Below are positions 789 to 29,034 of a stretch of 64,000 nucleotides of DNA, piece after piece. The position numbers were made by a program, and so were the translations under genes. Origin of the DNA: Myxococcota bacterium (GTDB taxonomy: Bacteria > Myxococcota_A > UBA9160 > UBA6930); the NCBI GenBank assembly GCA_965223705.1, contig OZ245015.1, forward strand, positions 2,912,001 through 2,976,000. The letters are read 5' to 3'. Under the pieces are notes generated by a model that saw only the letters and a program-made list of their open reading frames with translations, was not told where the DNA came from and ran no database searches. Every line of letters starts with the position of its first letter. Positions within the stretch are counted from its first letter, which is position 1.

Positions 789-798
789 GCTGGACCCC

Positions 799-3117: not shown

Positions 3118-3986
3118 CACTGCACTCCGCGACCCGTGACAGCTTTACGCTCGCGGATCTCGTTTCCCCCGCGGAGCATTGGCGATCCCTTCGTGAAGCG
3201 GCGCGCTACTTGTACGGTCATCGCGAGTTGCTCTATGAGCTGACCGCACGAGAGATCAAAGATCGCTATGCGGGCCAGGTCTTCGGAATCCTGTGGGCGA
3301 TCGCACATCCCTTGGTCTTGGTGTCCACCTACCTGGTGATCTTCGTGTTCGTTTTCCAGGTTCGGTTCCCTGAAGGACACACCCTACCCAGGGACTACGC
3401 CACGTACATCTTGGCTGGGCTCATCCCGTGGTTGACGTTCTCGGAAGCGATGAACCGCTCGTGTATCTCGATCGTTTCGAATCGTGCTCTCGTTAAACAA
3501 GTCGTGTTTCCGATCGAAATCCTCCCGATTCGGTCGGTGCTCGCAACCATGGTGTTTTTCTCCGTGACGATGGTTGCGCTCGTTCTCTACTCACTCGTTC
3601 GCTTCGGTAGCGTTCCAGGAACGTTCGGCCTCGTCTTCATCTTGGCGCTCTGCCAGATCCTCGCCATGTCGGGTGTCGGGTTGCTGCTGGCCGGTCTCGG
3701 TGCGTACTTCAGAGATGCGAAAGACGTCGTGCAGGTCTTCAGTCTGATCGGACCGTATTTGATCCCGGCGTTCTTCCTGCCGCAGTGGGTCCCTGCGGCT
3801 CTCAAACCCGTCCTCTTTGCGAACCCGTTCAGCTACCTCGTCTGGTGCTTCCAAGACGCCTGCTATTTCGGCCGTATCGAGCACCCCATCGCATGGGTCG
3901 TTTTCCCCCTGATGTCGGTCGCCGTGTTCTCGGTCGGTTTCATGAGCTTCCGTCGACTCAAGTTCGCGTTCGGAAATTTTCTGTGA
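3114..3986 (+). CDS. wzm: polysaccharide ABC-2 transporter permease
   Basis: REIKDRYAGQVFGILW, LVKQVVFPIEILP, FRDAKDVV; about six hydrophobic segments; ATGA overlap with upstream GT. Confidence 0.9.
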   Translation: MTLHSATRDSFTLADLVSPAEHWRSLREAARYLYGHRELLYELTAREIKDRYAGQVFGILWAIAHPLVLVSTYLVIFVFVFQVRFPEGHTLPRDYATYILAGLIPWLTFSEAMNRSCISIVSNRALVKQVVFPIEILPIRSVLATMVFFSVTMVALVLYSLVRFGSVPGTFGLVFILALCQILAMSGVGLLLAGLGAYFRDAKDVVQVFSLIGPYLIPAFFLPQWVPAALKPVLFANPFSYLVWCFQDACYFGRIEHPIAWVVFPLMSVAVFSVGFMSFRRLKFAFGNFL

Positions 3987-6195: not shown

Positions 6196-6199
6196 CGCT

Positions 6200-13024: not shown

Positions 13025-15232
13025 CTACCCCGGGCAACTGTCCGCGATCTCGGTGAGCTCGGCTCGGACCGGATCGGCGAAAACCCGCCCGCTCGCGAGC
13101 AAAGACGCTGCCACGGCGCAGCCGTCCTGCGCTTTTCCCGGAGCGGCGCGGAGGGTCCGGGCGACGCCGACGCGCGCTTCCGCCCACTGCTCGCTTTCCG
13201 GCGGCACGAGTTGGCTCGCACGGTGCCAGATCAACGTGGCGCGGTCGGGCAGGTCGAGAGATTCAAAGAGTGTCGCCGCGCCGTGAAGGGTTCCGAGCGC
13301 GCGCGGCTCGGTGGACAGCGTCTCGTCGAGGAGCGTCACCGCTCCGTCGATGTCGCCCGCGCGCGAAGACGCCTCGGCTTCACGCAGGGTGAGATCCGCG
13401 ACGAGCTCGACCTCGACGTCGTCAGGACGCTTCGCGCGCAGCGCCGCGAGCAGCTTCGCGTGAACCGCCGGGTTGGGCGCGGCTTCCGGCGGAACGGCGG
13501 CGAAGATCGCCGCGAGCTGCCAGCGATCGCGTTTCGCGCCGGGCCCCGCTTCGAGCATTCGTCGCGCGCGATCTTGTGCGTCCGCGTGCCGCCCGACTCG
13601 CCACAGCGCGACGAGACGCGTGCGGGTCGTCTCGAAATCGTCGCGAAGCGTGAGCAGGGTATCGAGTGCGGGTGTCACCTTCCCCTCCGCGATCTGTTGC
13701 CTCGCACGTGCGAGTCCCAGCTCCTGGGCGTAGGTCTTCTTTGTGGCCGCCGGGATTCCCGCAACAGCGTGCAATGCGCGGGCGAGCTTCTGCGCCGGCG
13801 CGCGGAGGTTGACGCGCTCTTGCAGCGAACGCTCGAGCTCCGACTGCAGCTTGGAAGACAAGAGGAGCGCCTTCTGAAGCTCGACGGCTTCGCCTCCCGC
13901 CTTGTTTCGTGTATCGACGCGCTCGAGGATGCGAATCGCGCGATCGGGGTTGGCGGTCGCCGCCGCGCGGCCGAGCGCCCGGTGGACGGCGACTTCCCCC
14001 GCCTCAGCGCTGTCGGGAGCATCCTTGGCCACCCAGGCCGACGCGTCGGCGACGGCGCGGTTCGCGCCCGCGCCGCCTTCCGCCTGCCAAGATCGCGCCG
14101 CGTCATAGGCCAGGCGCGCGACGTCGGGCCGGAGCGACGACTGCGGATGATCGGTGCGAAAACGCTGACTGGCGGCGTAGGCCTGTGCGAACCGTCCCGC
14201 GCGGTACTCGGCTTCCGCGAGCCGAGCGACCACGACGTCCCGTCGCAACCCGGGCAACGGGCCTCCACGCAACGCCCGGTCGAGGTGCGCGGCCGCGCGC
14301 GATGGTTCGTCCTTTCCGGCGGCGAGGCCCGCTAGAGCGGAACCGACAGCGCCGAGACCGAGTCCGTCCAAGAACGCCGCGTCGAGCCCCGCCGCGGCGA
14401 GGTGCGCGGTGGCCTGGCCGGCGCTCTTGCCTTCCATCAACGCCTTGGCGGTCTCGCTGATCGCCGACGATCGTTTCGCACGGTCTTTGGCACCGAGGAA
14501 CGCCTCGAGTCTCATCAGGAGGAGCTCTTCGTTGCGTGTCCCCTCGGTTTCTTTCAGGACTTCCTCGAGCTTCCCCTCGGCGGCCGCCGTTCGCGCCCGC
14601 TCGACGCGGACACGCTCGTGGAAATCGGGCGGCGCATCGCGGAAGACCTTGCCGAGGCGGTCCAGGGTCGCGCGCGCTTTTGCGGTCTGCCCCAGGCCGC
14701 GCTGCAACGATGCGACCGCGAGCAGCGTCTCGCGACCGACGGCCGGGTCTCGGACGCGAGGCAGTGCGCGACCGAACGCCCGGAGCGCTTGCTGAAAGTA
14801 ACCGCGCTGGCGTGTGCGACTCGCGCCACTGCGCTGCGCAGCGTGCCCCAAGCGAAAGAGCACCCAACCGCGCCAGTAGTCGATCTCGCCCGACAGGTGA
14901 TCCATCTGCAGCCACTCCGAAGAACCGTAGAGGGCATCGAGCGCCGCTTCGTCGTCCGCAATGGCGTTTTCTCTCCGGTCGCGCAGTGAGGTCAGCCCAC
15001 TTTGGGCGCTTTGCAACGCCGCGAGGGCGTCCTCGAGGCGCGCCGCTGGGAGGCCGTCGCCCCGCCCGAGCACCTCCGCCGTGTCGCGAACGACCGCCTT
15101 GAGCCCCGGCAAGTCGCCGGACTGTGCCGCGCGCTTTGCGCGCCCCGCGAGCTCCGTCGCCGCTATACCGGGTGCCGCGAGCACAGCGGTGAGCAAACCG
15201 ACGATCACGAGGTAGCGCGCGAAGAGCAGCAT
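13025..15232 (-). CDS. large secreted alpha-helical (TPR-like) protein
   Basis: Signal peptide; TPR-like segments (IDYWRGWVLFRLG, LAEAEYRAGRFAQAYAASQRFRTDHPQS, SSRAGDIDGAVTLL); TAATG coupling to exbD. Confidence 0.7.
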   Translation of the reverse strand: MLLFARYLVIVGLLTAVLAAPGIAATELAGRAKRAAQSGDLPGLKAVVRDTAEVLGRGDGLPAARLEDALAALQSAQSGLTSLRDRRENAIADDEAALDALYGSSEWLQMDHLSGEIDYWRGWVLFRLGHAAQRSGASRTRQRGYFQQALRAFGRALPRVRDPAVGRETLLAVASLQRGLGQTAKARATLDRLGKVFRDAPPDFHERVRVERARTAAAEGKLEEVLKETEGTRNEELLLMRLEAFLGAKDRAKRSSAISETAKALMEGKSAGQATAHLAAAGLDAAFLDGLGLGAVGSALAGLAAGKDEPSRAAAHLDRALRGGPLPGLRRDVVVARLAEAEYRAGRFAQAYAASQRFRTDHPQSSLRPDVARLAYDAARSWQAEGGAGANRAVADASAWVAKDAPDSAEAGEVAVHRALGRAAATANPDRAIRILERVDTRNKAGGEAVELQKALLLSSKLQSELERSLQERVNLRAPAQKLARALHAVAGIPAATKKTYAQELGLARARQQIAEGKVTPALDTLLTLRDDFETTRTRLVALWRVGRHADAQDRARRMLEAGPGAKRDRWQLAAIFAAVPPEAAPNPAVHAKLLAALRAKRPDDVEVELVADLTLREAEASSRAGDIDGAVTLLDETLSTEPRALGTLHGAATLFESLDLPDRATLIWHRASQLVPPESEQWAEARVGVARTLRAAPGKAQDGCAVAASLLASGRVFADPVRAELTEIADSCPG

Positions 15233-15675
15233 TAGAGCACGTCTCCGAGCTCGCCGAGCGTCACGCGCTTGCGTCCCGCCGCGAGCGCCGCGTCGTAGGC
15301 GTCGACGACTTTTGAATACGGCACATCGTCGTCCCCGACAACGACGACGGGGATCGAGCCCGGGAGACCGCGCAAACGCGCGACCAGTTCCTCCGCGGTG
15401 GTGACCGCGGTTCCAGCCGCGAACCAGGCCGGCCCTTGTTCCGTGTTGCGCACAGCCACGCGGTAGGGTTCGAGAAACTGCTCGACCGTCGGAGGTTCCT
15501 TCTCGGGGAGACGGACCTCAAAACGATCTTCCCTCGGGATGAAGCGAGCTGTGAGCACCAGGAACAGGAGGAGAAGAAAGACGACATCGACCAACGGGGT
15601 CAAGCCCGAGGTCGACGCCGCGGACGCGCCGTGGGGCGCGCGCCGAACCTGCTGGCGCCCGCGCAATCTCCTCAT
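15232..15675 (-). CDS. exbD: ExbD/TolR family protein (second copy)
   Basis: LTPLVDVVFLLLLFLVL transmembrane segment with the essential Asp; VVVGDDDVPYSKVVDAYD; ATG at 15675. Confidence 0.88.
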   Translation of the reverse strand: MRRLRGRQQVRRAPHGASAASTSGLTPLVDVVFLLLLFLVLTARFIPREDRFEVRLPEKEPPTVEQFLEPYRVAVRNTEQGPAWFAAGTAVTTAEELVARLRGLPGSIPVVVVGDDDVPYSKVVDAYDAALAAGRKRVTLGELGDVL

Positions 15676-16085
15676 CGCGCGCTCCCCGACGTCTCGGGCG
15701 TAACCATGAGGCGAACGTTCGGAACGCCTTCCTCGCGAAGCACCGAGAGCACACGTTTCATCGTTCCGTAGTTCACGCTCCCATCGCCGCGAAGACGTAC
15801 CATCGTCGCGCCCCGCGCCGACAACTCCGAGGCGATGGAATCGAGTCCGGTCGGTTCTCCAGAAAGGTGCAGCGCGCCGCCTCGCGTAACGGTTATGACG
15901 GGCTCGCCGCCCGGACGGTCGGTTTCCTTCGCCTCGGTGGCCTCGGGCAACGCCACTTGGACCAGCTGCTGCTGAATCACTCCCTGTGCCAGTGCGAAAA
16001 ACAGCACGAGCAACATGACGAGGTCGATCAACGGCATGAGGACAGCGCCGAGCCGTCCCCATGCGGCGGAGCTACTTCGCTTCAT
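15672..16085 (-). CDS. exbD: ExbD/TolR family protein (first copy)
   Basis: LMPLIDLVMLLVLFF, VALPEA, LRGDGSVNYGTMKRVL; ATG at 16085 overlaps the exbB stop. Confidence 0.88.
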   Translation of the reverse strand: MKRSSSAAWGRLGAVLMPLIDLVMLLVLFFALAQGVIQQQLVQVALPEATEAKETDRPGGEPVITVTRGGALHLSGEPTGLDSIASELSARGATMVRLRGDGSVNYGTMKRVLSVLREEGVPNVRLMVTPETSGSAR

Positions 16086-16873
16086 GCCGAAACGCGACGG
16101 CCGCCGTGAGACAGGCTTTCCGGAAGCGCCGCTACTGCGTTCTCCCCGGCTGCGACGCCCGTCGCCTGAACGTGATCCGCCCGGTTGCGCAAGATCGTGT
16201 AGAGCAACAGGATGGGGATCGCGACGGAAAGCCCCATCATGGTGGTGACGAGCGCCTGAAAAATACCTGCGGAGAGTTGGACCGGATCCACCGGGCCCGT
16301 CGATTGAGACAGGGCGGCAAAGGTTTTCACCATCCCGGTCACGGTGCCGAGCAAACCCAGCATCGGCGCAATGGTCGCGATCAAGTTCAAGTACTCGACG
16401 CGGCGTACGACGCCGCTCATCCAACTTTCGGCTGCGTCCGCCATCACGTTGCGCGCTTCGGGTCGGCCGTCTTCCAGGGCTTCAATGCCCGAACGGAGGA
16501 TATGCCCGAGAAACGTCGGGCTCTTCCGACTGGCGGCGAGAGCCGCGGCGGCGTCACCTCCGCGAAGTGCCTCGCCGACCTCGTGCGCGAGCTTCGCCGG
16601 TACCAACGACTTTGCGCGGAGCTCGAAGAAGAACACCGCCGCTAATGCCAGACCGACGATCGAGAGCGCGAGAATCGCGTAGCCTACCGTACCGCCGTAA
16701 CCCAGGACCTCGGCGAAATCGATGTCCGCCTCTTCCGAGGCGCTCGGTGTAGCCGCAGGCTCCGCGAGGACGGGTGCCGAGTCGGGCTCTTGCGCTGAAC
16801 TGATCGACACCGTCGACAACAGCGCGCCGAGCACGGCGAGGATGAGCCAGAAAGGCTTGATGTTGCTTCTCAT
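16082..16873 (-). CDS. exbB: MotA/TolQ/ExbB proton channel protein with cleavable signal peptide
   Basis: IATIAPMLGLLGTVTGMV and GIFQALVTTMMGLSVAIP signature helices; ATG at 16873 overlaps the vWA stop. Confidence 0.9.
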   Translation of the reverse strand: MRSNIKPFWLILAVLGALLSTVSISSAQEPDSAPVLAEPAATPSASEEADIDFAEVLGYGGTVGYAILALSIVGLALAAVFFFELRAKSLVPAKLAHEVGEALRGGDAAAALAASRKSPTFLGHILRSGIEALEDGRPEARNVMADAAESWMSGVVRRVEYLNLIATIAPMLGLLGTVTGMVKTFAALSQSTGPVDPVQLSAGIFQALVTTMMGLSVAIPILLLYTILRNRADHVQATGVAAGENAVAALPESLSHGGRRVSA

Positions 16874-17946
16874 TCGAGTCCTCCGAGAAACGGAACCAAC
16901 CAGTCGAGCCACTGCGTTCCGAAAATGGCTACCGCGAGATTGCGGGCAACCTGAGCGGTGCCGCCGAGATTGACGACTTCACCGCCTCCGGCGTTCGCCA
17001 GCTCGGCAAACTGCGGAATGAGTCCGCTCGATTGGTACGCCGGCTCCACGCCGTGCAGCTTTCGCAAGACCTCGGGATTCGAGATCAACGACACGTCGAG
17101 CAGGGTCACGACCCCACCGCGCCGGTGGAACGCTCCGACGCGGTCGATGAGCCGCCCCATCGTCTCGGGATGTGGCGGCGCGTCTCCGACCACGATGACG
17201 ACTTGAACCGCCTGCGAGCGGAACCCGGTCTTCTCGATCGCCGCTTCCATCGCAGAGTCAATCGCTTCAAAAATGTCTCCGCCCCCTTCGGCGTCGAGGG
17301 CGTGAAGGAACTCGCGAAGGCGCGCGTTCCGATACGTCAGGGGCAGGACCTTCGTCACGTAGGCCGAGTCGTAGTCGCGATAGGCCACGACGCCAAACCG
17401 CGTCTTCGGCACGAAGCCGCGAACGACGCGCACGAGCTCGTCGATGCGATCCCGCACTTCCTCGATCACCCAGCCCATGCTCCCCGTCGTGTCGATGGCG
17501 AGTACGACGTCGAGTCCGTGGCGTCGCATCTCGTCGAGCATGTCGTCGAAGCTGCCGAACGCACCGGGGCGGCCCGCGCCGAACGACGGCGCCAGTTGCG
17601 CCACGGCGCTCGGTTGAGACTCGAAGATCTGGGTCGCTTCCGCCGTGATGGGGTCGGGGCGGAACGTCCTCGTCGGAAGGGGACGGACCGTGGTGACTTT
17701 GGGTTTCGGCCTGGGAATCGGCTTGGGTTCCGGTGCGGCCTCGGCCGAGGTCGCGGCTTCGGGGGCCAGCGTCAACGCGGTTTCCGTCTCTTCGGGTGCG
17801 CCGGGCAGCCCGAGCCTGACGCCTCGCATGTACGCGAACAACGCGATGTGAAGGAGCACCGAGAACGCGAGCCCCAGCAGGACCCAACGATTCGTCTGCC
17901 AGGAAGACGGACCCGGCGCGCGCGGCGTCTGCATGGGCTCGCTCAC
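16870..17946 (-). CDS. membrane-anchored vWA-domain protein with TonB-like N-terminal anchor and Pro/Lys linker
   Basis: TM segment WVLLGLAFSVLLHIALF (S29xxxH33), linker APEPKPIPRPKPKV, MIDAS-type IDTTGSM, VAYRDY, GGGDIFE, VIVVGDAPPH. Confidence 0.85.
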   Translation of the reverse strand: MSEPMQTPRAPGPSSWQTNRWVLLGLAFSVLLHIALFAYMRGVRLGLPGAPEETETALTLAPEAATSAEAAPEPKPIPRPKPKVTTVRPLPTRTFRPDPITAEATQIFESQPSAVAQLAPSFGAGRPGAFGSFDDMLDEMRRHGLDVVLAIDTTGSMGWVIEEVRDRIDELVRVVRGFVPKTRFGVVAYRDYDSAYVTKVLPLTYRNARLREFLHALDAEGGGDIFEAIDSAMEAAIEKTGFRSQAVQVVIVVGDAPPHPETMGRLIDRVGAFHRRGGVVTLLDVSLISNPEVLRKLHGVEPAYQSSGLIPQFAELANAGGGEVVNLGGTAQVARNLAVAIFGTQWLDWLVPFLGGLE

Positions 17947-18635
17947 GACGGGACGACGCTTTCGGCACCGCCGCGCCCCGACGCCAGGAGTGCCGCGGAA
18001 AGTTCGCGCTGGCAGTGAACGAGCGTCGCGTGGTGGGACGCTCTCGAAGCCTCACTCGCTGCGGCGGCGATGGCGAGGGCCAGCCCGTAGCGACACTGCG
18101 CGCGCAGGCCCGCCGTCGAGAGGAGCCCATTGCTCCAGGCCTCGAGCGCGATGAGATAGTCGAAGAAATGTTGTCGTGCGAGCAAGTCCACCCGGACGCC
18201 GAGCGCGATATCCCCGGCGGTGGTCGCGGCGCGGAGGACTTCCGCCATGCCGTCGATGCAATGCGCCCAGACCTGGGGGGTGAGCTGGGGATCGCTCTGT
18301 TCCCAAAGCGCTCGCAGAAGACCGCGGCCGTACACGGGATCTTCGGTCTGCTCGTCGATCGCACAATCGAGGATCGCGAACGCCAAATCGACCGGCGGCA
18401 TGTCCGGTAGCGCCTGAATCCGCTCCTCCGTGCGCTCCACCGTCTCGACCAATAGGGCGTGAAGCACTCCGCCCTTCCCGCCGAACAAGTTGTAGGGCGT
18501 CACGAGTCCGACACCGGCTTCGCGCGCCAGGGAGCGCATCGCCAACCCGCCGGGCCCTCCCCTTCGGATGAGCCGTTTCGCCGCGCTCAAGATTCTCCGG
18601 CGCCGCTCGTCTTGCTGCTTCTCTCGCAATCCCAT
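17943..18635 (-). CDS. TetR/AcrR family transcriptional regulator
   Basis: N-terminal HTH: RRRRILSAAKRLI...MRSLAREAGVGLVTPYNLFGGK. Confidence 0.9.
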   Translation of the reverse strand: MGLREKQQDERRRRILSAAKRLIRRGGPGGLAMRSLAREAGVGLVTPYNLFGGKGGVLHALLVETVERTEERIQALPDMPPVDLAFAILDCAIDEQTEDPVYGRGLLRALWEQSDPQLTPQVWAHCIDGMAEVLRAATTAGDIALGVRVDLLARQHFFDYLIALEAWSNGLLSTAGLRAQCRYGLALAIAAAASEASRASHHATLVHCQRELSAALLASGRGGAESVVPS

Positions 18636-18668
18636 AACGCGTTATGATTGTATAACGTGTTATGGGAT
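18629..18668. promoter_or_regulatory. tandem TetR-type operators within a 40-bp near-palindrome overlapping the tetR start codon and a divergent promoter
   Basis: ATCCCATAACGCGTTATGATTGTATAACGTGTTATGGGAT: perfect 14-bp palindrome CATAACGCGTTATG plus second copy TATAACGTGTTATG; the outer 10-bp arms are exact reverse complements. Confidence 0.8.
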
Positions 18669-19216
18669 GGGTGAACGCGTATTCGATGTCAGCGATGAGG
18701 CTCGCCGCTATCGGTGCTGTGTGGCTCGTCATGAGCGCCTGCAGCGGCATCCAGAAGCATGAGGGCGGTTACATCTTCGTCCCCGAGGTTGAAGGCGACG
18801 CCGTCGAGCAGGAAGTCGAATCCCTGATGCGCGCCGAAACCGGAGTGTGGCTGGGAATGCCTCGGGGTATCGCCGAAGACATCCTCAACGATCGTTTTGG
18901 ACTCACGAGCGGCCGACAGCCGAGCTCCGGCGGGATCGAGACGCTCGTCGCCCCGGGTGGGGGCTACGTCTACCTCCTCTACTACAAAGGACCGCCGGGG
19001 AGCGGCAAGATCCTGGTCTGCGGGCTTCAGATGCGCGGCGTCGGCGAAGACCCGCCGCCGCTCATGTCACCCGCCGGCGTTCGGCAACATCTCGGCGGGA
19101 AGAGCTACCGACGCACGGCGGAACGCGTTGTTTCTGTCTCCGATCGCGAGATCTTGTTCCTCGACCGCGAACACTGTCCGGAGCGCGATCCGGGACCGCC
19201 GCGCCGAACCGACTAG
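18662..19216 (+). CDS. hypothetical lipoprotein (true start may be 18686 or 18695)
   Basis: MRLAAIGAVWLVMSAC lipobox-like signal; fills the gap between tetR and the HEAT-repeat gene. Confidence 0.6.
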   Translation: MGWVNAYSMSAMRLAAIGAVWLVMSACSGIQKHEGGYIFVPEVEGDAVEQEVESLMRAETGVWLGMPRGIAEDILNDRFGLTSGRQPSSGGIETLVAPGGGYVYLLYYKGPPGSGKILVCGLQMRGVGEDPPPLMSPAGVRQHLGGKSYRRTAERVVSVSDREILFLDREHCPERDPGPPRRTD

Positions 19217-20397
19217 AGTCGCGCCTGGGTGGGGCTGAGCGCGCCCGTCCCCTCTTCGTAGCCGCCGTCCTGGTTGTAGATGACGGCCCACGCGGCCATG
19301 ACTCGAACCGGGAGGCTCGTGTCGTCGAGTGCGCCCGCCGCCAGTTCGCGCTCCTCGGCTCGCCCTCGCCAGCCCACGGCCCACAAACTCTGCAACCGCA
19401 GATGCTCCGCCTGCCCTGGCTCGACGCCGCGCGCGAGTGTCTCGCGCGCCTCCATGTCGCGAGCCCATCCCAATGCCTCGATCACCCGGCCGGCGGCGAT
19501 CTCGTCGACGGAGCCGTCGGCGACAACCAGGTTCGCGAGCTCCAGAATGATGTCGCCGCTCGAGCGGCGGAGCGCGCCCGCGGCGATCGATGCCAGTCGC
19601 TCGTCGTTGCCGAGCACCTGCCCGCGCAGGTAGTCCTTCGCTTCTCGGACGCCTTGGCGTGCGCGGCTGGCAGAAGCCGCGATGCGAACCCGCGGTGAGG
19701 GATCTCGTGCGAGCTTCTCGAGTGCATCCCGCGACCATTCCGTCGGCTCAAGCGCCAGGCAGGCTGCCGCGATCTCTCGCTGGAGCTCTCCACTGGCTCT
19801 GAGCAGAGGCTCGACCATTGCGGGAATCTTCGCGCTGCCCAGCGAAGAGGCCGCGTAGATCGCGTAGGCGCGCATCCGCGGATCGTCCAGCTTCGAGATG
19901 TACTCCTCCACGACAGGGAGTAGCTCCGGGTTCCTCGAGTTCGCCGCCGCGTCCAAGGCCGCAACCTGCATGTTCGGTTGACCGGTGCGGATCGCCGACT
20001 CGATCAACGCCACGGCGTCCGTTCTCGGCGTAATGCGAAGACCTTCGAGGACCGAGCGCGTGAGCTCGGGGCTCTGCGTCGAATGGCGTTCGAACCACTG
20101 GATGGCACGCGGGCCTCGCACGGTGAGCACCGCGCCAACCGCGGCTTGCCGTGCGAGCTCCGCGCCGCTGGTGAGCGCATCCAGCAACACCTCTTCGCCT
20201 TCGACAGAGCCGCCGCTCAAGAGGATGCCTGCGGCGACGACGCGGTCGTAGCGGTCGACGTCTTCGAGGGCCAACGCATCTCGGGCAACCTGGAGCGCGC
20301 GCTCGCGCAGCTCGGCGTCCGGTCCTTGGCACCCCGTACCCAACGAGACAAGCAGCGAAAGAGCGGCAGAGAGAAGGAGGGGCTGGCAACGTCGCAT
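19213..20397 (-). CDS. HEAT-repeat lipoprotein
   Basis: LLVSLGTGC lipobox; repeated HEAT-like units (LARDPSPRVRIAASAS, ALDDTSLPVRVMAAWAV); GGAG RBS. Confidence 0.75.
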   Translation of the reverse strand: MRRCQPLLLSAALSLLVSLGTGCQGPDAELRERALQVARDALALEDVDRYDRVVAAGILLSGGSVEGEEVLLDALTSGAELARQAAVGAVLTVRGPRAIQWFERHSTQSPELTRSVLEGLRITPRTDAVALIESAIRTGQPNMQVAALDAAANSRNPELLPVVEEYISKLDDPRMRAYAIYAASSLGSAKIPAMVEPLLRASGELQREIAAACLALEPTEWSRDALEKLARDPSPRVRIAASASRARQGVREAKDYLRGQVLGNDERLASIAAGALRRSSGDIILELANLVVADGSVDEIAAGRVIEALGWARDMEARETLARGVEPGQAEHLRLQSLWAVGWRGRAEERELAAGALDDTSLPVRVMAAWAVIYNQDGGYEEGTGALSPTQARL

Positions 20398-20566: not shown

Positions 20567-22786
20567 TTAGAACGAGTACCGAATCCGGAAGAACACCTCG
20601 TCCTGGTTCCGGATGTTGCTCAGGCCTTCCTGGATGGCGCCTCGCACGTTCGTGGGCGTGCCATCTCCAAGCGGCAGAAATGTACCATCCGCTTGAGGAT
20701 CGACCGTGAACCCCGTGAAAGGTCCGATGGCATGGCTGTCTTCTTGGGGGGTCCCCCAGATGACGTTCACGCCGCCGAGAATGCTCCAGTTGTTGGTGAG
20801 CAGGTATTGCAGCTGAAAACCCGATACCCAAGCCCCCGAGGCCTCCTCCCAAACGATGAAGCCCTGTGGCGTCAATCGATCGCGCATGTACTGGCCCTGG
20901 ATGAAGAGCGTCAGGATCCAGTTGTGCCGGTCGATCGGCATGCCGCTCTGGTTGTTCCCCTCATGGTCCTTCCAGTACGTGTGGAAGATCTGGCTCGAAA
21001 TAAAGAACGTCCGGTTCGGGTTCAAGAACTTGATGAACGTCGGTCGATCCATACCTAACGCGAACTGAATGAGATCCGACTCGTCGAACCAGTTCAGCTT
21101 GTTCGTATTCGTGATCGGTACGTCGTTACTCCAAGACGACTCGAGGCGGAACACGATGCCGGTGAAGTCATCGAAGTAGTCGACGGCGAGCCCCAGCGTG
21201 TTCACCTTGTTGTAGTCGAGGAAGATCGAGCCACCCGGGGTCAGGAAACCGCCGAAGGCCGAATAGAACGCCTGCGGATCGTTGTGGGCGTTGTTCGCCA
21301 GCGCCACCACGGCCGGGTTGGTCGAGTTTTGCGCCAGGGCCACGACCTCTTCCGGCGAGCCGACGAAGGCCGGGATGTTGCCCAGGGCCGCCGAGCAGCC
21401 CGCTGCGGCGGCCGCCGCGGCGGCGCGGTCGAACCACAGACAGTCGTTCGTCGGAATCCCGGTAGCGACGTTCTGGCTCAGTGTGATCGTGTTCCAGCGG
21501 ACCTCAGGCGTATCCCAGGTGCCCCAGTGGTTGGTGAGCGCGAAACGGATCTTCCAGATCCTCGCCTCGAAGCGCACCGCGATCTCGGTGTTGTCGAACT
21601 TCCAGGCCGGCAGGTTCTCACCGCCCGCCAGGCCCGCCGGTGTGCCAAAGCCCGAAGGCAACACACCGGAGCCGAAACCGTCCGGATCGGCTCCACCACA
21701 TGCGATCTGGCCGTCACCGGCCGTGGCCGGATTGAAGTCCGTACCGCCCGGAGCGCAGGGTTCCACGCTGAAGTAGGTATTGAACAGCGCGAAGGTTCCG
21801 ATCTGGCGACCGAAGAAATCGAATGCCCAGCCGTGATACGGCGCGCCGCCGCCTACCCGCTGGAAGCGGTCGAAGTTCCAGATCAACTGGATCGCGGTAT
21901 CGGTCAGCGGCCCGATCGAACCCGGGCGCCACTGCGCCGAGATCATCCACTGCGGAATCCGGATATCTTCGAAGGAATCGAAGAAGAAGTGCTGTCCAAA
22001 GTCCACCGGGTTGATGACGTCCTGGAGGCGGAAAAAGTCCGTCTTTCCCCACACGATCTGCTGCTTGCCCGCGCGGATCCAGACGTCGCCGATGCGCAGG
22101 TCCATGTATAGCTCGCGCACCGGGTACAGGCGTCCGTTCGAGTCCGTTGCCCCGAAGGCGACGTCGAGATGGTCGTCGTCGACGTCCTGACACTTGGGAC
22201 AATTAAGATTTCGATCGCTCAGAGGAAACGTGAGCGGGAAGTTTGCGTCTTCAAGCACGGCAAACTCTTCGAAGAAGCTCGGTCCCTCGACCCCGTGCAG
22301 GACGATCTTCTCGAGACCGCCTGTGGCTGTGATCGCAGGCTGCCCGATGGCACGACCGGCAGCGAAGTCGAGACCACCGAAGGCAACCGGGTCGCTACCG
22401 TAGGAGAGGCGGCCCGAGTCAGCGGGCGTATTGTCGGCGTCCCGGCCCACGTGGCCGTTCGAAATATCCTCACCGTAGTACTGCGCCCAGTCGAACTGAG
22501 GTCGCAACACTGTCGTGATTGCGATCTCGTCGAACAGCCCGACTTCTTCCCAGGTGATGGTCGCCTCTACCTGGAGCCGTGTGATCAGCTGATTGAGGTA
22601 GGTGGAGCCACCATCTTCAAACGTGTGAATGCGAGCTTCCGCGTCTGCGAAGCCGGCGACCTCGAGTTCGCCACCGAGAACTTCCCAGGTGTAACCCGCG
22701 CGCGCCTGTTGGCTGGCGCCCAGAGCGACGGCCATGACGGCGGCGAACAAAAATGTCGCGCCTCGACCCATGAGTTGAACGAGCAT
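20567..22786 (-). CDS. DUF1302-like outer-membrane beta-barrel protein
   Basis: Signal peptide, RELYMDL, RAGKQQIVWGKTDFFRLQDVINPVD, EDIRIPQW, C-terminal FFRIRYSF (BAM signal); strong GAGGAGG RBS before ATG 22786. Confidence 0.8.
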   Translation of the reverse strand: MLVQLMGRGATFLFAAVMAVALGASQQARAGYTWEVLGGELEVAGFADAEARIHTFEDGGSTYLNQLITRLQVEATITWEEVGLFDEIAITTVLRPQFDWAQYYGEDISNGHVGRDADNTPADSGRLSYGSDPVAFGGLDFAAGRAIGQPAITATGGLEKIVLHGVEGPSFFEEFAVLEDANFPLTFPLSDRNLNCPKCQDVDDDHLDVAFGATDSNGRLYPVRELYMDLRIGDVWIRAGKQQIVWGKTDFFRLQDVINPVDFGQHFFFDSFEDIRIPQWMISAQWRPGSIGPLTDTAIQLIWNFDRFQRVGGGAPYHGWAFDFFGRQIGTFALFNTYFSVEPCAPGGTDFNPATAGDGQIACGGADPDGFGSGVLPSGFGTPAGLAGGENLPAWKFDNTEIAVRFEARIWKIRFALTNHWGTWDTPEVRWNTITLSQNVATGIPTNDCLWFDRAAAAAAAAGCSAALGNIPAFVGSPEEVVALAQNSTNPAVVALANNAHNDPQAFYSAFGGFLTPGGSIFLDYNKVNTLGLAVDYFDDFTGIVFRLESSWSNDVPITNTNKLNWFDESDLIQFALGMDRPTFIKFLNPNRTFFISSQIFHTYWKDHEGNNQSGMPIDRHNWILTLFIQGQYMRDRLTPQGFIVWEEASGAWVSGFQLQYLLTNNWSILGGVNVIWGTPQEDSHAIGPFTGFTVDPQADGTFLPLGDGTPTNVRGAIQEGLSNIRNQDEVFFRIRYSF

Positions 22787-22913
22787 CAAATCCCCTCCTC
22801 GGTCCGGAACCACTGAGGGGGGCACCCCCGGGGTCCGGCCAGCTCGCTGATTAAAGCATTCCCCCGCAAGGATTTAAAGCATCTTTTGCGGGTTTCTTCG
22901 TCTTTCGGGGCGT

Positions 22914-25583
22914 CTAAGCCCCGGCCGGTTCGCGTACCGCCTCTCCGGCCTGCTCTGCTCCCTGATCCTTGATGAACTTGGGTTGGAAGATACGGATCAT
23001 CATCGGGAGGATCGTGATCGCACCGATCATGTGGCCGCCCATCAGGAGTGTGAGGAGCAGCGCCATTTCCGAGTTGAAGCGGAGCGCCGATCCCACAATC
23101 CAGTAGAAGATGCCGGCGACGACCGTGATCGCCGTAAACACCACGGCAGCCCCCGTCGTCGACAGCGTCTTCACGATGGCGTCGTTCACGGACATCTCGC
23201 GCGCCTCCTCGCGGATGCGGTCGAGGATGTAGATCGCGTAATCGACGCCGATCCCGATGCCGACAGCCGTGACCGGAAGCGTGTTGACGTTGAGCCCGAT
23301 GCCGCGGATCCCCATGTACGCGCGGTTCACCAGCACGGCGATCATCAGCACGACGAACACCAACGCCGGCGCCGTAAAGGACCGGTAGGTGATGAACACC
23401 GACGCCATCACCACGACCAGAATGAGCGCCGTCTGGATCAGCTCCGAGTGCTCGATCTCCTCGTTCGCCGCCGCCGTCACTCCGACGTAACCGCCGGCCA
23501 GCTTGTACTCGATCCCCTCGAGCGGGTTCTCCTCGATGAACTCCTTCACGGCCGCGACCGCGCGGGTCACCGTTTGACCCGTCGCGTCCTTGAAGAACGT
23601 GACGAAGTTCGCCTTCTGCGCCGGGTAGTCGACGTACTCGAGAATGACGCCGGGGATGGCCGCACCCGCTTCGTACATGAAGAGAATGTTGCCGATGTCC
23701 GAGGCCGATTCGGGAAGTGCCGACCAACGGGGGTCGTCGAAGTGATAGAGACGGTTGATCGAGCGGACCAGCGTCGGCACGTCACGCGTACCGCCCGCGC
23801 CGAGCACGCCCATCATGTGCTGACGGAACTTCTCGACGGTGCGCACGACGTCGGGGCGCTTCATCTCGTGCTCCTTGGTACCGACCAAGTAGACAGACAG
23901 CTGGTTCGCTCCCGCGAAGCGATCGTTGATCGCCGCCGCGGCGACGTTGTAGTCGCTGTCCTGGAAGACGATCGGGGAACCCGGGAGGTTCTCGCCGACG
24001 ACCACGTCTTTCGCGTACCAGAGCGAGCCGAACACGAGGACGGCCGTGATGATTCCCACCGGCACGTTCGAGCGCGGTGAAACCAGGAAGTTCCCCAGAT
24101 GCCACATCACACGCTGGGCGAACGGCTCGGGAGAACCGTCCGCGCGGTGGCCCGCCGAAGCGGCCGTGGTCGTGGGTGCCATCAAGTGCGCGATGCACCA
24201 CGGAAGGAGCAGCGGCACCGAAACGATGTTGCTGCCCGACCAGAAGCAACAGAAGATTCCGAGCTTCGCGATGATCGGGATCGACGATACCGCGAGCACC
24301 AAGAGCCCCGCCGCGTCCGTGAAGATCGCGATGAAGCTCGGCGTGATGAGCTCGCCCATCGTGTTGATCACCGCGGGCTTGCGCTCGTAGCCCGCCCGCA
24401 ACTCGTCGCGGTAGCGCTCGAGGAACTGCACCGCGTGGCTCGCTGTCCGCGCGGAGATCAAAATCGGTACCACGAGGATCAGCGGGTCGAGGTTGTACCC
24501 GAGCCAACCGACGAACCCGAGGCCCCACACCGCGGACAGGCCCGTCGAGATAACCGGCAGAATCAGCCCCGGGAGTGACCGGAAGTAGAGCAGGAGGAGG
24601 GTTCCGAAGAGCACTGCGGTAACGCCGAAGATGAACGCCAGCTGATCGGAGTGGTGGTAGATCCAACCCTTCAGCATCGGTTCACCGGCGGTGTAGAGCC
24701 TGGTCTTCGGTTCGCCCGCCGGTTCATTTGCGGCCATCACCGCTTCGTGCATGGGATCGTAGATCTCACGCCAACCCGGAACAGGATCTTCGCCTTCCGC
24801 GATCTCCGCGTCGAAAGCCGCCGCGAGCTGATCGAGCGGAGCGCTCTCCACTTCGAAGTTCTGCTCGGCGATCACCTTCTTGAAGTTGTTGAGTGCTCGT
24901 TTGGCTTTCGAGGTCTCTCCTGTGTCGATCTGCCAACCCAGGATGTCGAGTGCTCGCGCGACCCAGAAGTTGTCGGATTCCACGAGCCAGCGGAGCGCTC
25001 GCAGTCTGCCGAACACCTCGTTGTAATCGAGGCGGTCTTCATCGAAGCCCGCGAGCACCATCGCAGCCTTTCCGTCTTCGGAGAGGTAGGTGCCGTAGAC
25101 GATGTCGTTGTTGAACATCTCCTCGCGGAGACTCTTCAGCACCTCATCCTTTTTTGGGATGCGGCGCGGCAACACCGGTTCGGATTTCACGAGGCCGCCG
25201 GCCGTCGTGATGATCCGGCGAATCTTGCGGTGCGCGATGCTCGCCACCTGGTAGTGGTTCACGCCCTTGATCTTGTCGACTTCGTCGTTCAGGTAACGAA
25301 CTTTCGACAGCGCTTCCTCGGTAAAGATGTCTTCGCCGGTGGCCTCGAGGGACATCGTCACCACGTTGGCGCCGCCGAACGTGTCGCGCATCTCGTTGTA
25401 CGTGCGGATGTACTCGTGACGCTGCGGGAGAAGATCCGCGAACCGCGAGAACACCTCGATCGAGGGAATCTTGTAGGCGAGTACCGCCGTGGGAATCGCC
25501 ATCAAGATGAGCGAAATGACGGGGTGCTCGATCCACCACTTCGCGAAGTTATATGTCCAGCCTGAGGTTCGATCGTCTGACAT
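22914..25583 (-). CDS. MMPL/RND-family transporter
   Basis: Two-repeat RND topology; LDPLILVVPILISARTASHAVQ, GIGIGVDYAIYI, TGAAVVFTAIT. Confidence 0.9.
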   Translation of the reverse strand: MSDDRTSGWTYNFAKWWIEHPVISLILMAIPTAVLAYKIPSIEVFSRFADLLPQRHEYIRTYNEMRDTFGGANVVTMSLEATGEDIFTEEALSKVRYLNDEVDKIKGVNHYQVASIAHRKIRRIITTAGGLVKSEPVLPRRIPKKDEVLKSLREEMFNNDIVYGTYLSEDGKAAMVLAGFDEDRLDYNEVFGRLRALRWLVESDNFWVARALDILGWQIDTGETSKAKRALNNFKKVIAEQNFEVESAPLDQLAAAFDAEIAEGEDPVPGWREIYDPMHEAVMAANEPAGEPKTRLYTAGEPMLKGWIYHHSDQLAFIFGVTAVLFGTLLLLYFRSLPGLILPVISTGLSAVWGLGFVGWLGYNLDPLILVVPILISARTASHAVQFLERYRDELRAGYERKPAVINTMGELITPSFIAIFTDAAGLLVLAVSSIPIIAKLGIFCCFWSGSNIVSVPLLLPWCIAHLMAPTTTAASAGHRADGSPEPFAQRVMWHLGNFLVSPRSNVPVGIITAVLVFGSLWYAKDVVVGENLPGSPIVFQDSDYNVAAAAINDRFAGANQLSVYLVGTKEHEMKRPDVVRTVEKFRQHMMGVLGAGGTRDVPTLVRSINRLYHFDDPRWSALPESASDIGNILFMYEAGAAIPGVILEYVDYPAQKANFVTFFKDATGQTVTRAVAAVKEFIEENPLEGIEYKLAGGYVGVTAAANEEIEHSELIQTALILVVVMASVFITYRSFTAPALVFVVLMIAVLVNRAYMGIRGIGLNVNTLPVTAVGIGIGVDYAIYILDRIREEAREMSVNDAIVKTLSTTGAAVVFTAITVVAGIFYWIVGSALRFNSEMALLLTLLMGGHMIGAITILPMMIRIFQPKFIKDQGAEQAGEAVREPAGA

Positions 25584-25595
25584 GGTGCGATACTC

Positions 25596-26918
25596 CTAAG
25601 CGTTGTCGTCGTTCAGACGAATCTGGCAGCGTTCCCAGCCGGAATTGCCTTTGCGAAACACGCAGCTACCGCGCCCACCGAGAGCGAGCAGCGTGTTGTC
25701 TTCCAATACGAGGATGGGCTTGAGCCACGAATAGAGCTCGAGCGCGGAACGGTCGACGAGCTTCCACCCCTCGCCCTCGACCTCTCCGAGCAACCCGACG
25801 GCGCCGACGATCAGCGGCGACGAGTTCGCGAGGAGGTGCGTCCCGAAGATGCCCGCCGTGCCCGCAGGTTGCGGCCTCGAGGACCACGTGACGCCGCGGT
25901 CGTCGCTGCGTTGGTTGGCACCGGCCGCTCCGACGAGAACGATGGTGTCGCCCTTCCCCGTGGAATCGATCCAATACGGGAGGTCGGGGTCTCGCGCGGA
26001 GAGCGATGCGCCGCGGCGTGCCCACGTAGCGCCGTCATCTTCGCTCTGAAGAATGAGTCCGAACTCACCCGCGGCCGTGATGAGGTCTCCCTGGAAGACC
26101 ATCGTGCTGATCGTGAAGTCGCCGGCCTGGAACGCCGCGCCGGGCCGGAAGTCGAAGGTGATCGTCGGCGCGGGCTCGGCGTCGAGCTCGTTGACGATCT
26201 CGATGACGCCGTCCTCGCTGACGATGAAATCCTTGTCGAGTTCGGCCGGGCGTCCGTTGACGTTGCCGGCGAGTACGATGGACTCGCGGAGAATGTTCGC
26301 GACGCCGGTGAACCAAACACCCGGGTTCGTGTTCGGGAAGGGCAGCGGGGGTTGGTTCACGGTATCCGGGGCGGCGTCCTGAAAGGTCTTTCCACCGTCG
26401 CGCGACACCGCGAGGATGCCTCGCCCGCCAGCGGCCCAGATCGACCTGATGTTGCCCGATGAATCGCGCCGCACGCCCATGGTGAGGACGGCGTCGTTCC
26501 CGATGTTCTGCACCTGAGAGAGCGTGCCGTTTTCGAAGCGGAGAATATTGCCCGACGCACTCGCGACCAGCGCCGAGCCATCGGGCAAGGCGACGACGTC
26601 CATCAGGTCTTCGGTGACGTCCGTCTCGACGAGCTCGGCTTTCGAGACTTCCGACCCGTTGAACGTGATGAGGGCGACCATGCCGAACTCGCCGACGCCC
26701 AAGATCTGGTCGCTTCCAACGAGCTGAACCGCAGCGATCACATCGTTCGAAAACTGCAGCCGTCGGTCCCACGAAGGCGTCGGTGCCGCCTCTTGGGCGA
26801 ACGACGCAGACGCGACGAGGCTAGAGCTCATGCAGAGGAGGAGAAGCAGGACGAGTTCCTTGCTTCTCGGTACCCGGCGAACCGGGACCGATACGAGGGG
26901 CGCGTGTCGTTGTGTCAT
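25596..26918 (-). CDS. YCF48-like / BNR-repeat periplasmic beta-propeller protein
   Basis: Asp-box repeats SRDGGKTF, SEDDGATW, SDDRGVTW; VGEFG and AGEFG motifs; signal peptide. Confidence 0.8.
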   Translation of the reverse strand: MTQRHAPLVSVPVRRVPRSKELVLLLLLCMSSSLVASASFAQEAAPTPSWDRRLQFSNDVIAAVQLVGSDQILGVGEFGMVALITFNGSEVSKAELVETDVTEDLMDVVALPDGSALVASASGNILRFENGTLSQVQNIGNDAVLTMGVRRDSSGNIRSIWAAGGRGILAVSRDGGKTFQDAAPDTVNQPPLPFPNTNPGVWFTGVANILRESIVLAGNVNGRPAELDKDFIVSEDGVIEIVNELDAEPAPTITFDFRPGAAFQAGDFTISTMVFQGDLITAAGEFGLILQSEDDGATWARRGASLSARDPDLPYWIDSTGKGDTIVLVGAAGANQRSDDRGVTWSSRPQPAGTAGIFGTHLLANSSPLIVGAVGLLGEVEGEGWKLVDRSALELYSWLKPILVLEDNTLLALGGRGSCVFRKGNSGWERCQIRLNDDNA

Positions 26919-26967: not shown

Positions 26968-28173
26968 CTAGCGGATCTTGTCCGTGAAGTTCGGCAGGAC
27001 TTTTTCCGTGAGCAGCTCGAAGTGCCGCATCATCGCTTTCTGCGGAATGAGCTGCGTGTACGTGAAGAGCCAGAAGTACTCGGCCGGCAACTCCTCGAAC
27101 AGCGCCTCGAGCTTGCGCGACACGGTATCGGGGCTGCCACACACGACGAGCCCACGTTCATCCAACAGTTCGAACGTTTTCGGCAACTTCATCGGGTCTT
27201 CGCCGGGCCGCGCTACGGCCGCGTTGAACCCGAAGGGCTGGAAGAACTTCTGCCAGATGTAGACGCCCGCGTCCTTCGCGAGGTTGTACGCCTCTTCGTC
27301 GGTGTCGGCGACGATGACGTCGCGAATGATTCCCAAGCCTTCGCCGAACTTGAGATCTTTGCCGACCTCCGCGGCGCCTTCTTGTCCGGCGCGGAACTGG
27401 CCGGCGCAGATGTCGGGATCGCACACGATCGTGATGGGCACGACGTCGTTCTGTGCGGCCCAGCGAACCGACGATTCCGAAAAGCTGAAGGGCTGGAACA
27501 ACGGCGGGTGCGGCTTCTGATAGATCGCCGGGGCGATTCCGATCTCGCGAATCATTCCCGCGTCGTCGACGCCTTGCCCGAGCTCGCGTGTCACTTCGTG
27601 GGCGGGCCAGAAGATGTTGTCTCGGGGCGGGATGTCCCAGTGCTTGCCGTGGTGGCTGAAGGTCGGGTTCGCCCACGCCTTTTTGATGATGTCGAAGTGC
27701 TCGTGGTAGAGCTCTTTCTTGAGCTCCTCGTAGCGCGCCGGATCCGTCGTGCTATCGGCCAGCGTGTCGTAGTGCTGACCTAGCAGGTCGACCCAGCGGG
27801 GCTGGTAGCCGCGCGCAAAGCCGGCGAAAACACGCCCTTTGAGCATCTGGTCCACCATCGCGATGTCTTCGGCGAGGCGGATCGGGTTCGCGCAGGGCAA
27901 CACGTTGCCGAGCTGCCCGAAGCGCAGGTGCTTCGTCTGCATACCGAAGTACAGATCGAGTAGGATCGGGTTCGTCGAGACCTCTTCGCCCTCGATGTGG
28001 AAGTGATGCTCGGTGGTCGCGGAACCGTAGTAGCCGTGCTCATCGCAGTACTGAAGCTGCTCGGTCATGTCGGCCAGCATCTGCTGGTACAGATCCGTCC
28101 GCTGACCGGCCATTCCCTTTTCGAGCTCCTTCTTGGAGCCCGTGCTCGGCAAATAGAAAATTCCGACTTCCAC
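26968..28173 (-). CDS. luciferase-like (LLM) flavin-dependent oxidoreductase
   Basis: TEHHFH, NPIRLAEDIAMVDQMLKGR, GFARGYQ, QKPHPP, GSPDTV. Confidence 0.88.
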   Translation of the reverse strand: MEVGIFYLPSTGSKKELEKGMAGQRTDLYQQMLADMTEQLQYCDEHGYYGSATTEHHFHIEGEEVSTNPILLDLYFGMQTKHLRFGQLGNVLPCANPIRLAEDIAMVDQMLKGRVFAGFARGYQPRWVDLLGQHYDTLADSTTDPARYEELKKELYHEHFDIIKKAWANPTFSHHGKHWDIPPRDNIFWPAHEVTRELGQGVDDAGMIREIGIAPAIYQKPHPPLFQPFSFSESSVRWAAQNDVVPITIVCDPDICAGQFRAGQEGAAEVGKDLKFGEGLGIIRDVIVADTDEEAYNLAKDAGVYIWQKFFQPFGFNAAVARPGEDPMKLPKTFELLDERGLVVCGSPDTVSRKLEALFEELPAEYFWLFTYTQLIPQKAMMRHFELLTEKVLPNFTDKIR

Positions 28174-28185
28174 GATTTCTCCCGC

Positions 28186-29034
28186 CTAGCCCTGTGCTCG
28201 AATCTTATCGAGGACGGGCATCAGATACTTCTTGAAGACTTCGGGATTCTCACACATGGGGAAATGCCCGATCTCCTGCATGATGATGCACTCGGAGCCC
28301 TTTACCTTTTTCGCCGTGTCCTCGGTCATTTCGGGCGTGCAAGCGAAGTCGTATACGCCGGTCATGAGGTAGATGGGAATGTCGCCCGAGAGCTTCGAGC
28401 ACAACTCGCGGAAGTCGTGATCGACGCTGTAGAAGTAGAGGTCTCCCTTGAAAACGCCGGGACCGCCCTGGGCGTAGTACCACCAGGTCTCCCAGCGATA
28501 CTCGTCGGGGCTTTGCGGCGCCATCAAGCCGAAAACGGACGTGGCACACGCTTCGCCGCCGTGGACCTGCGAGTTATGCAACCAGTCGAGATGCCAACCC
28601 GGCGAGTGATCGCACGCTTCGATGGCGATCAGGGAGCGGAGCTGCTTCTCGTAGTGGAGTGCCAGGTGGAGGCAGATATTGCCGCCCATCGAGCTCCCCA
28701 TGATGACCGGCCGGTCGAGCTCCAGTGCTTCACAGAAAGCCATCACGATGCCGCTGTAGAACTCGGCCGTGAGTTTGTATTCCTCGGTCTCTAAGTACCA
28801 GTCTCCGGGCGGGATCGATTTTCCGTGGCGCGGCAGGTCGAGCGCGATGACGCGGAAATGCTTGTTGATGTCGGGATCGCAGAGCTGGTGCCGCCACTCG
28901 CGGGAATCGGTGCCTGCCGTGTGCAGGCAGACCATCGGGATCCCCTCTCCGGCTTCTTCATAGAAAATCCGGTAATCGACGCCCTTGTAGGGCACGTAGA
29001 CGTAGCGGCCGGTGATCGGTTCGATCTTTGCCAT
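28186..29034 (-). CDS. alpha/beta-fold hydrolase
   Basis: LHTAG oxyanion region, DLPRHGKS, GSSMGG nucleophile elbow, YDF, GHFPMCENP. Confidence 0.88.
   Translation of the reverse strand: MAKIEPITGRYVYVPYKGVDYRIFYEEAGEGIPMVCLHTAGTDSREWRHQLCDPDINKHFRVIALDLPRHGKSIPPGDWYLETEEYKLTAEFYSGIVMAFCEALELDRPVIMGSSMGGNICLHLALHYEKQLRSLIAIEACDHSPGWHLDWLHNSQVHGGEACATSVFGLMAPQSPDEYRWETWWYYAQGGPGVFKGDLYFYSVDHDFRELCSKLSGDIPIYLMTGVYDFACTPEMTEDTAKKVKGSECIIMQEIGHFPMCENPEVFKKYLMPVLDKIRAQG

Follow-up and report, generated by a model that had tools for sequence, protein, structure and literature searches.

A vWA-headed member of a published force-transducer class, its ExbB-ExbD-ExbD motor and a neighbouring DUF1302/RND/YCF48 cassette in a Myxococcota genome

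The locus described here lies in a 64,000-nucleotide stretch of contig OZ245015.1 (positions 2,912,001 to 2,976,000 of assembly GCA_965223705.1; the whole stretch is called "the window" below), which belongs to a 4.56-Mb, 95% complete genome of a Myxococcota bacterium. It contains a run of six minus-strand genes for a TetR-family regulator, a vWA protein, an ExbB, two different ExbDs and a secreted TPR-like protein. By its architecture and gene set the locus is a member of the vWA force-transducer class published in 2025, and in many genomes the same module lies beside a cassette of DUF1302, DUF1329, YCF48 and RND genes; recognition of this cassette as a plausible client of that class is likely what is new here. 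The genes of the run and its central motif are as follows:

13025..15232, minus strand: secreted TPR-like protein, 735 amino acids (Pfam TPR_6, 8e-7)
15232..15675, minus strand: ExbD/TolR-family subunit 2, transmembrane Asp30 (Pfam ExbD)
15672..16085, minus strand: ExbD/TolR-family subunit 1, transmembrane Asp21 (Pfam ExbD)
16082..16873, minus strand: ExbB/TolQ-family motor subunit, 263 amino acids (MotA_ExbB, E 5e-27)
16870..17946, minus strand: vWA protein, predicted force transducer, 358 amino acids (Pfam, predicted model, conservation)
17848..17862, minus strand: S-x3-H motor-coupling motif (SVLLH, S29/H33), conserved across relatives
17943..18635, minus strand: TetR-family regulator (Pfam TetR_N)

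The initial annotation of this DNA described these six genes as a chain with short overlaps, and all six open reading frames are indeed present on the minus strand and overlap by 1–4 bp (GTGA at 17943-46, ATGA at 16870-73, 16082-85 and 15672-75, and TAATG at 15232). In its database copy (P0007, 354 amino acids) the vWA protein begins four codons later, so the tetR/vWA overlap depends on a GTG start. The HMMER check suggested at that time gives the expected Pfam families on the six reading frames (TetR_N, VWA/VWA_2/VWA_4, MotA_ExbB, ExbD twice with E-values of 5e-17 and 6e-16, and TPR_6). The observation that the window has no TonB_C gene or TonB-dependent barrel also holds (zero matches, PF00593 included), but it says little, since the genome carries a Ton locus, Tol-Pal and five TonB-dependent receptors elsewhere; a flagellar stator is present as well. 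The ExbB-ExbD-ExbD set of the window is an additional motor beside the genome's own Ton and Tol systems.

The predicted model of the vWA protein has a transmembrane helix at residues 15–42, a low-confidence linker at about 45–130 and a confidently modelled vWA head at 133–357 (Pfam VWA/VWA_2/VWA_4 match at 146–326). The linker is 111 amino acids long and 14% proline, with a predicted local distance difference test score (pLDDT) below 50 at 51–68 and 98–128. The SxxxH motif that had been read in the stretch FSVLLH is S29-V-L-L-H33, inside the predicted helix, and its conservation among homologues, which had been proposed as a check, was found. A scan of GTDB confirmed 162 relatives of the transducer, and the best 80 loci are the sample for all counts given below as "of 80". 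The motif is present in 74 of these 80 under a strict filter that required S-x3-H inside a hydrophobic helix, and it is visible by inspection in at least three of the six that the filter missed; the His is present in 77/77 aligned rows and the Ser in at least 90% of them. In another 146 representatives SxxxH is present in 92 and a different xxxxH in 10, and 44 have neither (several of the last are fragments or other vWA types). Across the 77 rows the position H+7 is mostly V, A or L and H+11 mostly I, and the TonB_C and TolA C-terminal families are matched by 0/77. An alternating hydrophobic stretch, a candidate for a motor box, can be seen by eye 15–30 residues past the His (TALTLAP here; IPVTL and VQIIV in relatives).

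The metal-site residues of the head are D152, T154 and S156 (DTTGS, 152–156), E227 and D255; D152, T154, E227 and D255 are invariant in 80/80 loci and S156 is kept in 76/80. When the modelled head was compared with known structures (VIA), all 50 rows listed were integrin chains, with Z scores of 17.2–18.5 and root-mean-square deviations of about 2.5 over about 185 residues, which cover the head; Foldseek, ranked by E-value, placed BatB first. A search of PDB sequences with a close alignment of the vWA protein gave no match, and one with a broad alignment gave BatB, ITIH4 and integrin beta-8, all weak. The predicted integrin-like fold by itself shows no function. Look-alikes of the vWA protein in the Atlas come from Pseudomonadota, Binatota, Poribacteria, Planctomycetota and Verrucomicrobiota, and Planctomycete-type members (L132-L139; P0143-type and P0166-type) carry a CxxC zinc-ribbon-like or long cytoplasmic extension ahead of the SxxxH helix. 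The TonB/TolA-like anatomy, the conserved SxxxH and the adjacent TPR and exbB genes make it very likely that the vWA protein is a motor-coupled transducer, so this part of the earlier proposal stands, although the system is not a new one (below).

Both ExbB helices noted earlier are present (PMLGLLGT and ALVTTMMG), and both channel Thr residues are kept in 62/62 loci. The critical Asp of the first ExbD is found in 64 of 65 loci, the remaining one being truncated. The statement that both ExbDs keep this Asp is true of the window (Asp21 and Asp30) but not of the family: the Asp/Asp pair occurs in the four relatives nearest to the window and in L080, and 59 of the 65 loci have an Asp/Asn pair, that is, a natural one-Asp heterodimer. 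Asp/Asn ExbD pairs occur in some proteobacterial exbD operons; an Asp/Asn ExbD1/ExbD2 pair was not found in the portions available to us of the literature on ExbD heterodimers. Such a pair could readily be used to ask if both proton sites are required in a 5:2 motor.

The TPR-like protein begins with a signal-peptide-like sequence that has no lipobox Cys, and it is homologous to its gammaproteobacterial counterparts (hhalign 99.6%). Its residue E88 is invariant (64/64), position 95 is D or E in 64/64, and C705 and C733 are conserved. An Atlas search with this protein returned only generic TPR clusters, under the recognition threshold. Its gene adjoins that of the vWA protein in 79/80 loci, even where exbBDD has moved off, and we predict that it is probably the direct partner of the vWA protein.

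Whether vWA homologues are linked to exbBD had been posed as a further check, and such linkage is common: exbB is present in 62/80 loci and two exbD genes in 65/80. The vWA-TPR pair remains after the departure of exbBDD in at least 10 loci; in G151 the cognate exbBDD is retained elsewhere, between two RND-like genes (L218). We also note that the DUF1302-vWA interval of L028, L059, L064, L065 and L067 is without exbB-exbD-exbD.

The linkage of the module to the cassette is the central observation of this analysis. At least one of DUF1302, DUF1329, YCF48 and RND lies within 10 kb in 68/80 loci, and in 40 of the 46 loci with long flanks; singly, DUF1302 is found in 43 of the 80, DUF1329 in 53, YCF48 in 35 and RND in 34. 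Upstream, the first labelled gene is DUF1302 in 40 loci (mostly with a gap of 100–450 bp); after the TPR gene it is DUF1329 in 27 (within 80 bp in 19 of them); and the module is placed between the two in 31/80. Porticoccaceae-like genomes are among its carriers. The usual gammaproteobacterial order is RND-YCF48-DUF1302-exbB-exbD-exbD-vWA-TPR-(acyl-CoA ligase, CobW)-DUF1329. The TPR-DUF1329 interval of L011-L080 contains a CobW-family GTPase in 21/80 loci and an acyl-CoA ligase in 17/80; it is a matter of speculation that the former might load the vWA metal site. Among the six long-flank exceptions, all three that were checked have RND and DUF1302 genes 10–14 kb downstream, and their genomes hold just two DUF1302 matches. 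A survey of the class (151 genomes, 12 candidates scored per genome) gave a strong transducer match in six genomes, all with DUF1302 within about 18 kb; five of these are loci already among the 80. Control loci of distant vWA proteins are without motor, TPR and cassette in 6/6 and 47/47 cases.

The genome has a second vWA paralog (L107, G000:C1:1498141-1509868) of 374 amino acids with the motif SLGVH, which lies behind anti-sigma-like and lipoprotein-like genes and faces genes for an RND protein, a YCF48 protein, a 315-residue protein of no recognised kind and an 830-residue DUF1302 protein. Without exbBDD of its own, it would need a borrowed motor; its TPR homologue lies 416 kb away (C1:1916652-1918913). 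Two of the genome's four DUF1302 genes lie near the two paralogs, at distances of 2.6 and 6.5 kb, and by our own arithmetic the chance of such a placement within 7 kb is about 2% for each. In a tree made from 52 of the 64 intended rows (the anchoring motif was not found in the other 12, which were dropped), the window type, a second deltaproteobacterial-like type and the gammaproteobacterial type form three supported subclades of one supported clade (96/93); the root serves only for drawing, and L154 carries a long-branch warning. Gene order and DUF1302 partner differ from subclade to subclade, with partners only 16–30% identical to that of the window. Motor-linked DUF1302 barrels fall into different groups, with lengths of about 600–830 amino acids, and we rejected the idea that long DUF1302s are a motor-specific clade, as window-type barrels occur without an adjacent motor. 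The neighbouring families HEAT, c130, c132, c133 and c38 show no homology to one another. The organism labels in the database (Spirochaetales, Klebsiella, Hydrogenophaga) for L002, L003, L007, L033, L038, L048 and L079 are at odds with the sequence grouping and look unreliable.

In the window the cassette lies 2.6–9 kb upstream of the module and was overlooked in the initial annotation. Its genes, and a lipoprotein gene beside them, are:

19213..20397, minus strand: HEAT-repeat predicted lipoprotein (Pfam)
20567..22825, minus strand: DUF1302 outer-membrane beta-barrel (AmeA-like), long form (Pfam; model)
22914..25583, minus strand: MMPL/HAE3-type RND transporter (AmeD-like) (Pfam MMPL; TIGR00921 E 2e-46, below its cut-off)
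25596..26918, minus strand: YCF48/BNR beta-propeller protein (AmeC-like) (Pfam PSII_BNR)
26968..29034, minus strand: luciferase-like monooxygenase and alpha/beta hydrolase, cassette head in catabolic context (neighbourhood survey)

DUF1302, BNR/YCF48 and HAE3 RND genes thus stand side by side at 20567–26918 and make up three of the four members of an AmeABCD-like cassette. The DUF1302 model (pLDDT 86, predicted template modelling score 0.85) has its first strand directly after the signal peptide. Its best Foldseek match is OccAB3 (target TM-score 0.52); porins and Occ/AlgE channels make up the matches, at target TM-scores of about 0.5. The HEAT-repeat lipoprotein accompanies window-type DUF1302 genes in distant genomes without an adjacent motor (L127, L129) and is possibly a partner of the barrel. 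AmeABCD-like cassettes have been connected with monoterpene tolerance (PMC6394551) and with growth on fatty esters (10.1101/2020.07.04.188060), so that the published data lean towards export or tolerance in one organism and, in another, towards the use of esters. The four cassette genes show cofitness, and DUF1329 has been proposed to help an outer-membrane transporter mature (10.1101/072470); a DUF1302-DUF1329 complex has been predicted (PMC13499233).

Cassette and module are separated by a small divergent gene and a putative regulatory site:

18629..18668, no strand assigned: 17-bp inverted repeat formed by a pair of ATAACRCGTTAT palindromes, overlapping a promoter match and the tetR start
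18662..19216, plus strand: small predicted lipoprotein without a Pfam family, retained in L002-L004

The starts of tetR and of the divergent lipoprotein gene are 26 bp apart, and the sigma-70-like promoter match under the ATAACRCGTTAT repeat is the only one of the region. Sites with at most one mismatch to ATAACRCGTTAT number only these two in the genome, and the repeat is likely a TetR operator pair. The tetR gene had zero tblastn matches in the other loci fetched; it appears to be local to this genome and outside the conserved module, and the operator pair is likewise peculiar to this genome among those loci. Terminator-like sites are not in excess over shuffled sequence (13 versus 10.9). 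Judged from the DNA, the cassette and the motor operon of the window are probably separate transcripts.

Other parts of the window are noted here for completeness. Downstream of the module are a secreted FN3, proline-rich, FG-GAP repeat protein (9260–10699), whose integrin-alpha-like repeats lie near the integrin-beta-like vWA head and whose type is absent from the recurrent neighbour families of the 80 loci, and a sodium:solute symporter (10936–12486), which in L003 also has a counterpart after the TPR gene. Positions 1–9252 are a polysaccharide biosynthesis and export cluster of lower GC (about 60%). From translations alone, 26968–64000 appears to be a long catabolic run with monooxygenases, aldehyde dehydrogenase, CoA transferases and hydantoinase-like and amidase-like proteins.

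The genes and motifs, their conservation and the recurrent cassette linkage are shown above; we propose, tentatively, that the motor, the vWA protein and the TPR protein do mechanical work on the DUF1302/DUF1329/YCF48/RND cassette for hydrophobic compounds. By analogy with Ton and Tol structures and a published AlphaFold 3 (AF3) model, the SxxxH helix would dock on the rim of an ExbB pentamer that holds an ExbD1/ExbD2 heterodimer, and proton flow would shorten or move the linker of roughly 100 residues; Ton and Tol motors are known to grip their transducer helix (PMC12905483). The vWA metal site (D152, T154, S156, E227, D255) could then bind one of the invariant acidic residues in the TPR protein, with E88 and E95 as candidates, in a load-bearing bond of the kind that metal-ion-dependent adhesion sites form in Mdn1 (PMC8837202). 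We considered and rejected the possibility that DUF1302 is opened in the manner of a TonB-dependent receptor, given a barrel without a plug; for the same reason a pull on a periplasmic partner is favoured. In the least certain step, this pull may reset or release such a partner, for example a LolA-like DUF1329 carrier docked on the barrel, and might in this way speed the passage of a lipid-like or aromatic substrate between the membranes. TolA acts on TolB, and the pull would be comparable. A broader reading, which we hold with still more reserve, is that this would be a third proton-driven trans-envelope machine beside Ton and Tol, in which an integrin-like metal bond on a TPR adaptor drives a plug-less DUF1302 barrel and a LolA-like carrier for energised lipid or hydrocarbon transport, mostly with a one-Asp asymmetric rotor.

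Several findings weigh against work on the cassette or limit its reach. The loci are far from independent: 70 of the 80 are kin, nearly all from Gammaproteobacteria, so the counts overstate independence, and 65 of 81 genomes belong to one order. In the surveyed class 131 of 151 genomes carry DUF1302 and only six the transducer, and no motor was found within the 20 kb fetched around the window-type DUF1302 cassettes of G151 and G152; because most DUF1302 cassettes work without it, the motor must be regarded as an accessory. No tandem ExbD pair was seen in G120 and G126. In the window itself, DUF1329 is absent from the locus (13 matches lie elsewhere in the genome), the modelled barrel has no N-terminal plug domain, and a terminator-like hairpin, the divergent gene and tetR stand between cassette and motor operon. 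The motor residues also depart from their Ton/Tol counterparts: of the SHLS motif only the S-x3-H half survives, its Leu and final Ser being lost (this protein has Met at H+7 and Val at H+11), the first transmembrane helix of ExbB has S-x3-L where Ton and Tol have Ser and Trp, and the second ExbD has Asn at the key Asp position in 60 of 65 loci (exbD2 of L009-L079) and Asp in 5. Among 32 high-scoring metagenome loci, scored with hidden Markov models built on the clade and with a Pfam check on 52 chosen proteins, exbB is present in 15, mostly with one exbD, and in 17 there is no exbB in reach. The seven exbB-bearing loci of at least 10 kb have RND in two and DUF1302 or DUF1329 in none; five of the seven lie amid acyl-CoA, SCP2, thiolase, enoyl-CoA hydratase or monooxygenase genes. 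The 17 include Planctomycete-type SxxxH members on loci of 12–15 kb, with neither motor genes nor TPR nearby. Outside the clade, the link of module to cassette fades.

The module might instead have a general envelope job, in the assembly, quality control or remodelling of outer-membrane proteins or lipoproteins, and lie near the cassette through co-regulation or vertical inheritance or help only to build it. We think this unlikely, although the constant vWA-TPR pair beside a variable cassette and the distant members with motor and TPR but without DUF1302 would suit it. BatB, the best match in both sequence and Foldseek comparisons, is a vWA protein that belongs to a vWA/TPR operon, and the proposed role of DUF1329 in transporter maturation is of the same kind. 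Such a job does not readily explain why the module is inserted with short gaps between DUF1302 and DUF1329, or why linkage survives three rearrangements with different DUF1302 paralogs, and the genome already has Tol-Pal. That ExbBDD is an ordinary extra Ton motor, powering receptors through a TonB encoded elsewhere while the vWA and TPR proteins are passengers or act without force, is improbable: the genome does have TonB_C genes and receptors, Ton and Tol components can cross-complement (PMC12905483), and vWA-TPR stays behind when exbBDD leaves, but the His of the vWA helix is invariant and is kept even where the motor genes have moved, and none of the recurrent neighbours was recognised as a TonB-dependent receptor. 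A motor for surface motility or adhesion in the manner of Agl-Glt, the guess made for the class in PMC12204202, is highly improbable; one ExbB with two different ExbDs does recall AglR5QS, the gliding machine includes the vWA adhesin CglB (PMC11761067), and the vWA head here is integrin-like. CglB, however, is an outer-membrane lipoprotein and this vWA protein is tethered to the inner membrane, its neighbours are transport and catabolic genes, and the Agl-like exbB-exbD-exbD clusters of relatives (L215 and L216, assigned to family by reading the sequences) are separate and without a vWA gene. No AgmX/PglI (GltG-type) domain (NF033768) matched over cut-off in the genome, in which the outer-membrane Glt genes were not searched singly.

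Two puzzles meet at this locus: vWA transducers described in 2025 without an assigned function or client, and a widespread cassette with phenotypes on terpenes and fatty esters but no mechanism. The conserved linkage makes both testable, through residues H33, D152 and E88/E95 and the partners named above. Among the papers listed by our literature searches we found no report of a link between DUF1302 or DUF1329 and ExbB, ExbD or vWA proteins.

The initial annotation called the locus a candidate new proton-motor system, and this is not supported, as a 2025 paper (Williams-Jones et al., PMC12204202) already describes this architecture and gene set, together with a His contact modelled by AF3, for vWA force transducers of Proteobacteria, the Planctomycetes-Verrucomicrobia-Chlamydiae group, Bacteroidetes and Rhodothermaeota, with gliding as the suggested role. 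Assignment to an already characterised system, which had been named as a point to check, is true of the class but not of its function, the paper offering no functional characterisation. The locus shares with the TMH-SHLS type of that paper the Ser/His transmembrane helix, the proline-rich disordered linker of about 100 amino acids, the C-terminal vWA domain and the syntenic genes (TPR, tolQ-like and a heterologous tolR-like pair); it differs in having one transducer, where the Tichowtungia locus has two, and in a gene order with vWA first and TPR last. The transpore-helix type (vWA pair, transmembrane Asp, no exbD) is not matched, the window having a single vWA protein, a transmembrane His and two exbD genes. 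Cassette linkage, the Asp/Asn ExbD pair and the likeness to integrin beta-I domains are not in the account of the class in the parts of PMC12204202 available; DUF1302 has zero mentions in its supplement and none were found in its text.

Like TonB-ExbBD and TolA-TolQR, the system has channel Thr and Asp motor residues, an S-x3-H helix and a periplasm-spanning linker, but a vWA head replaces TonB_C or TolA domain III, half of SHLS is kept, the two ExbDs differ and the neighbouring barrel is plug-less. The earlier comparison with AglR/AglQ/AglS is sound for the layout (one ExbB and an R5-QS-like heterodimer), and Myxococcus AglRQS-Glt also has TPR partners and a vWA protein; it fails in that the vWA protein of that system is the surface lipoprotein CglB and that neither a GltG-type domain over cut-off nor a Glt set was found here. 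The integrin beta-I domain is the closest predicted fold of the head (Z about 18), with conserved acidic metal-site residues, and the head differs from it in being monomeric, bacterial and periplasmic and in its flexible tether, with 15–20% identity. Finally, the window differs from the AmeABCD and other DUF1302-DUF1329-BNR-HAE3 RND cassettes in its long barrel form, its lack of DUF1329 and its motor, which is not mentioned in the available cassette literature, and it resembles them in having barrel, propeller and RND transporter in one run amid genes for the catabolism of hydrophobic compounds.

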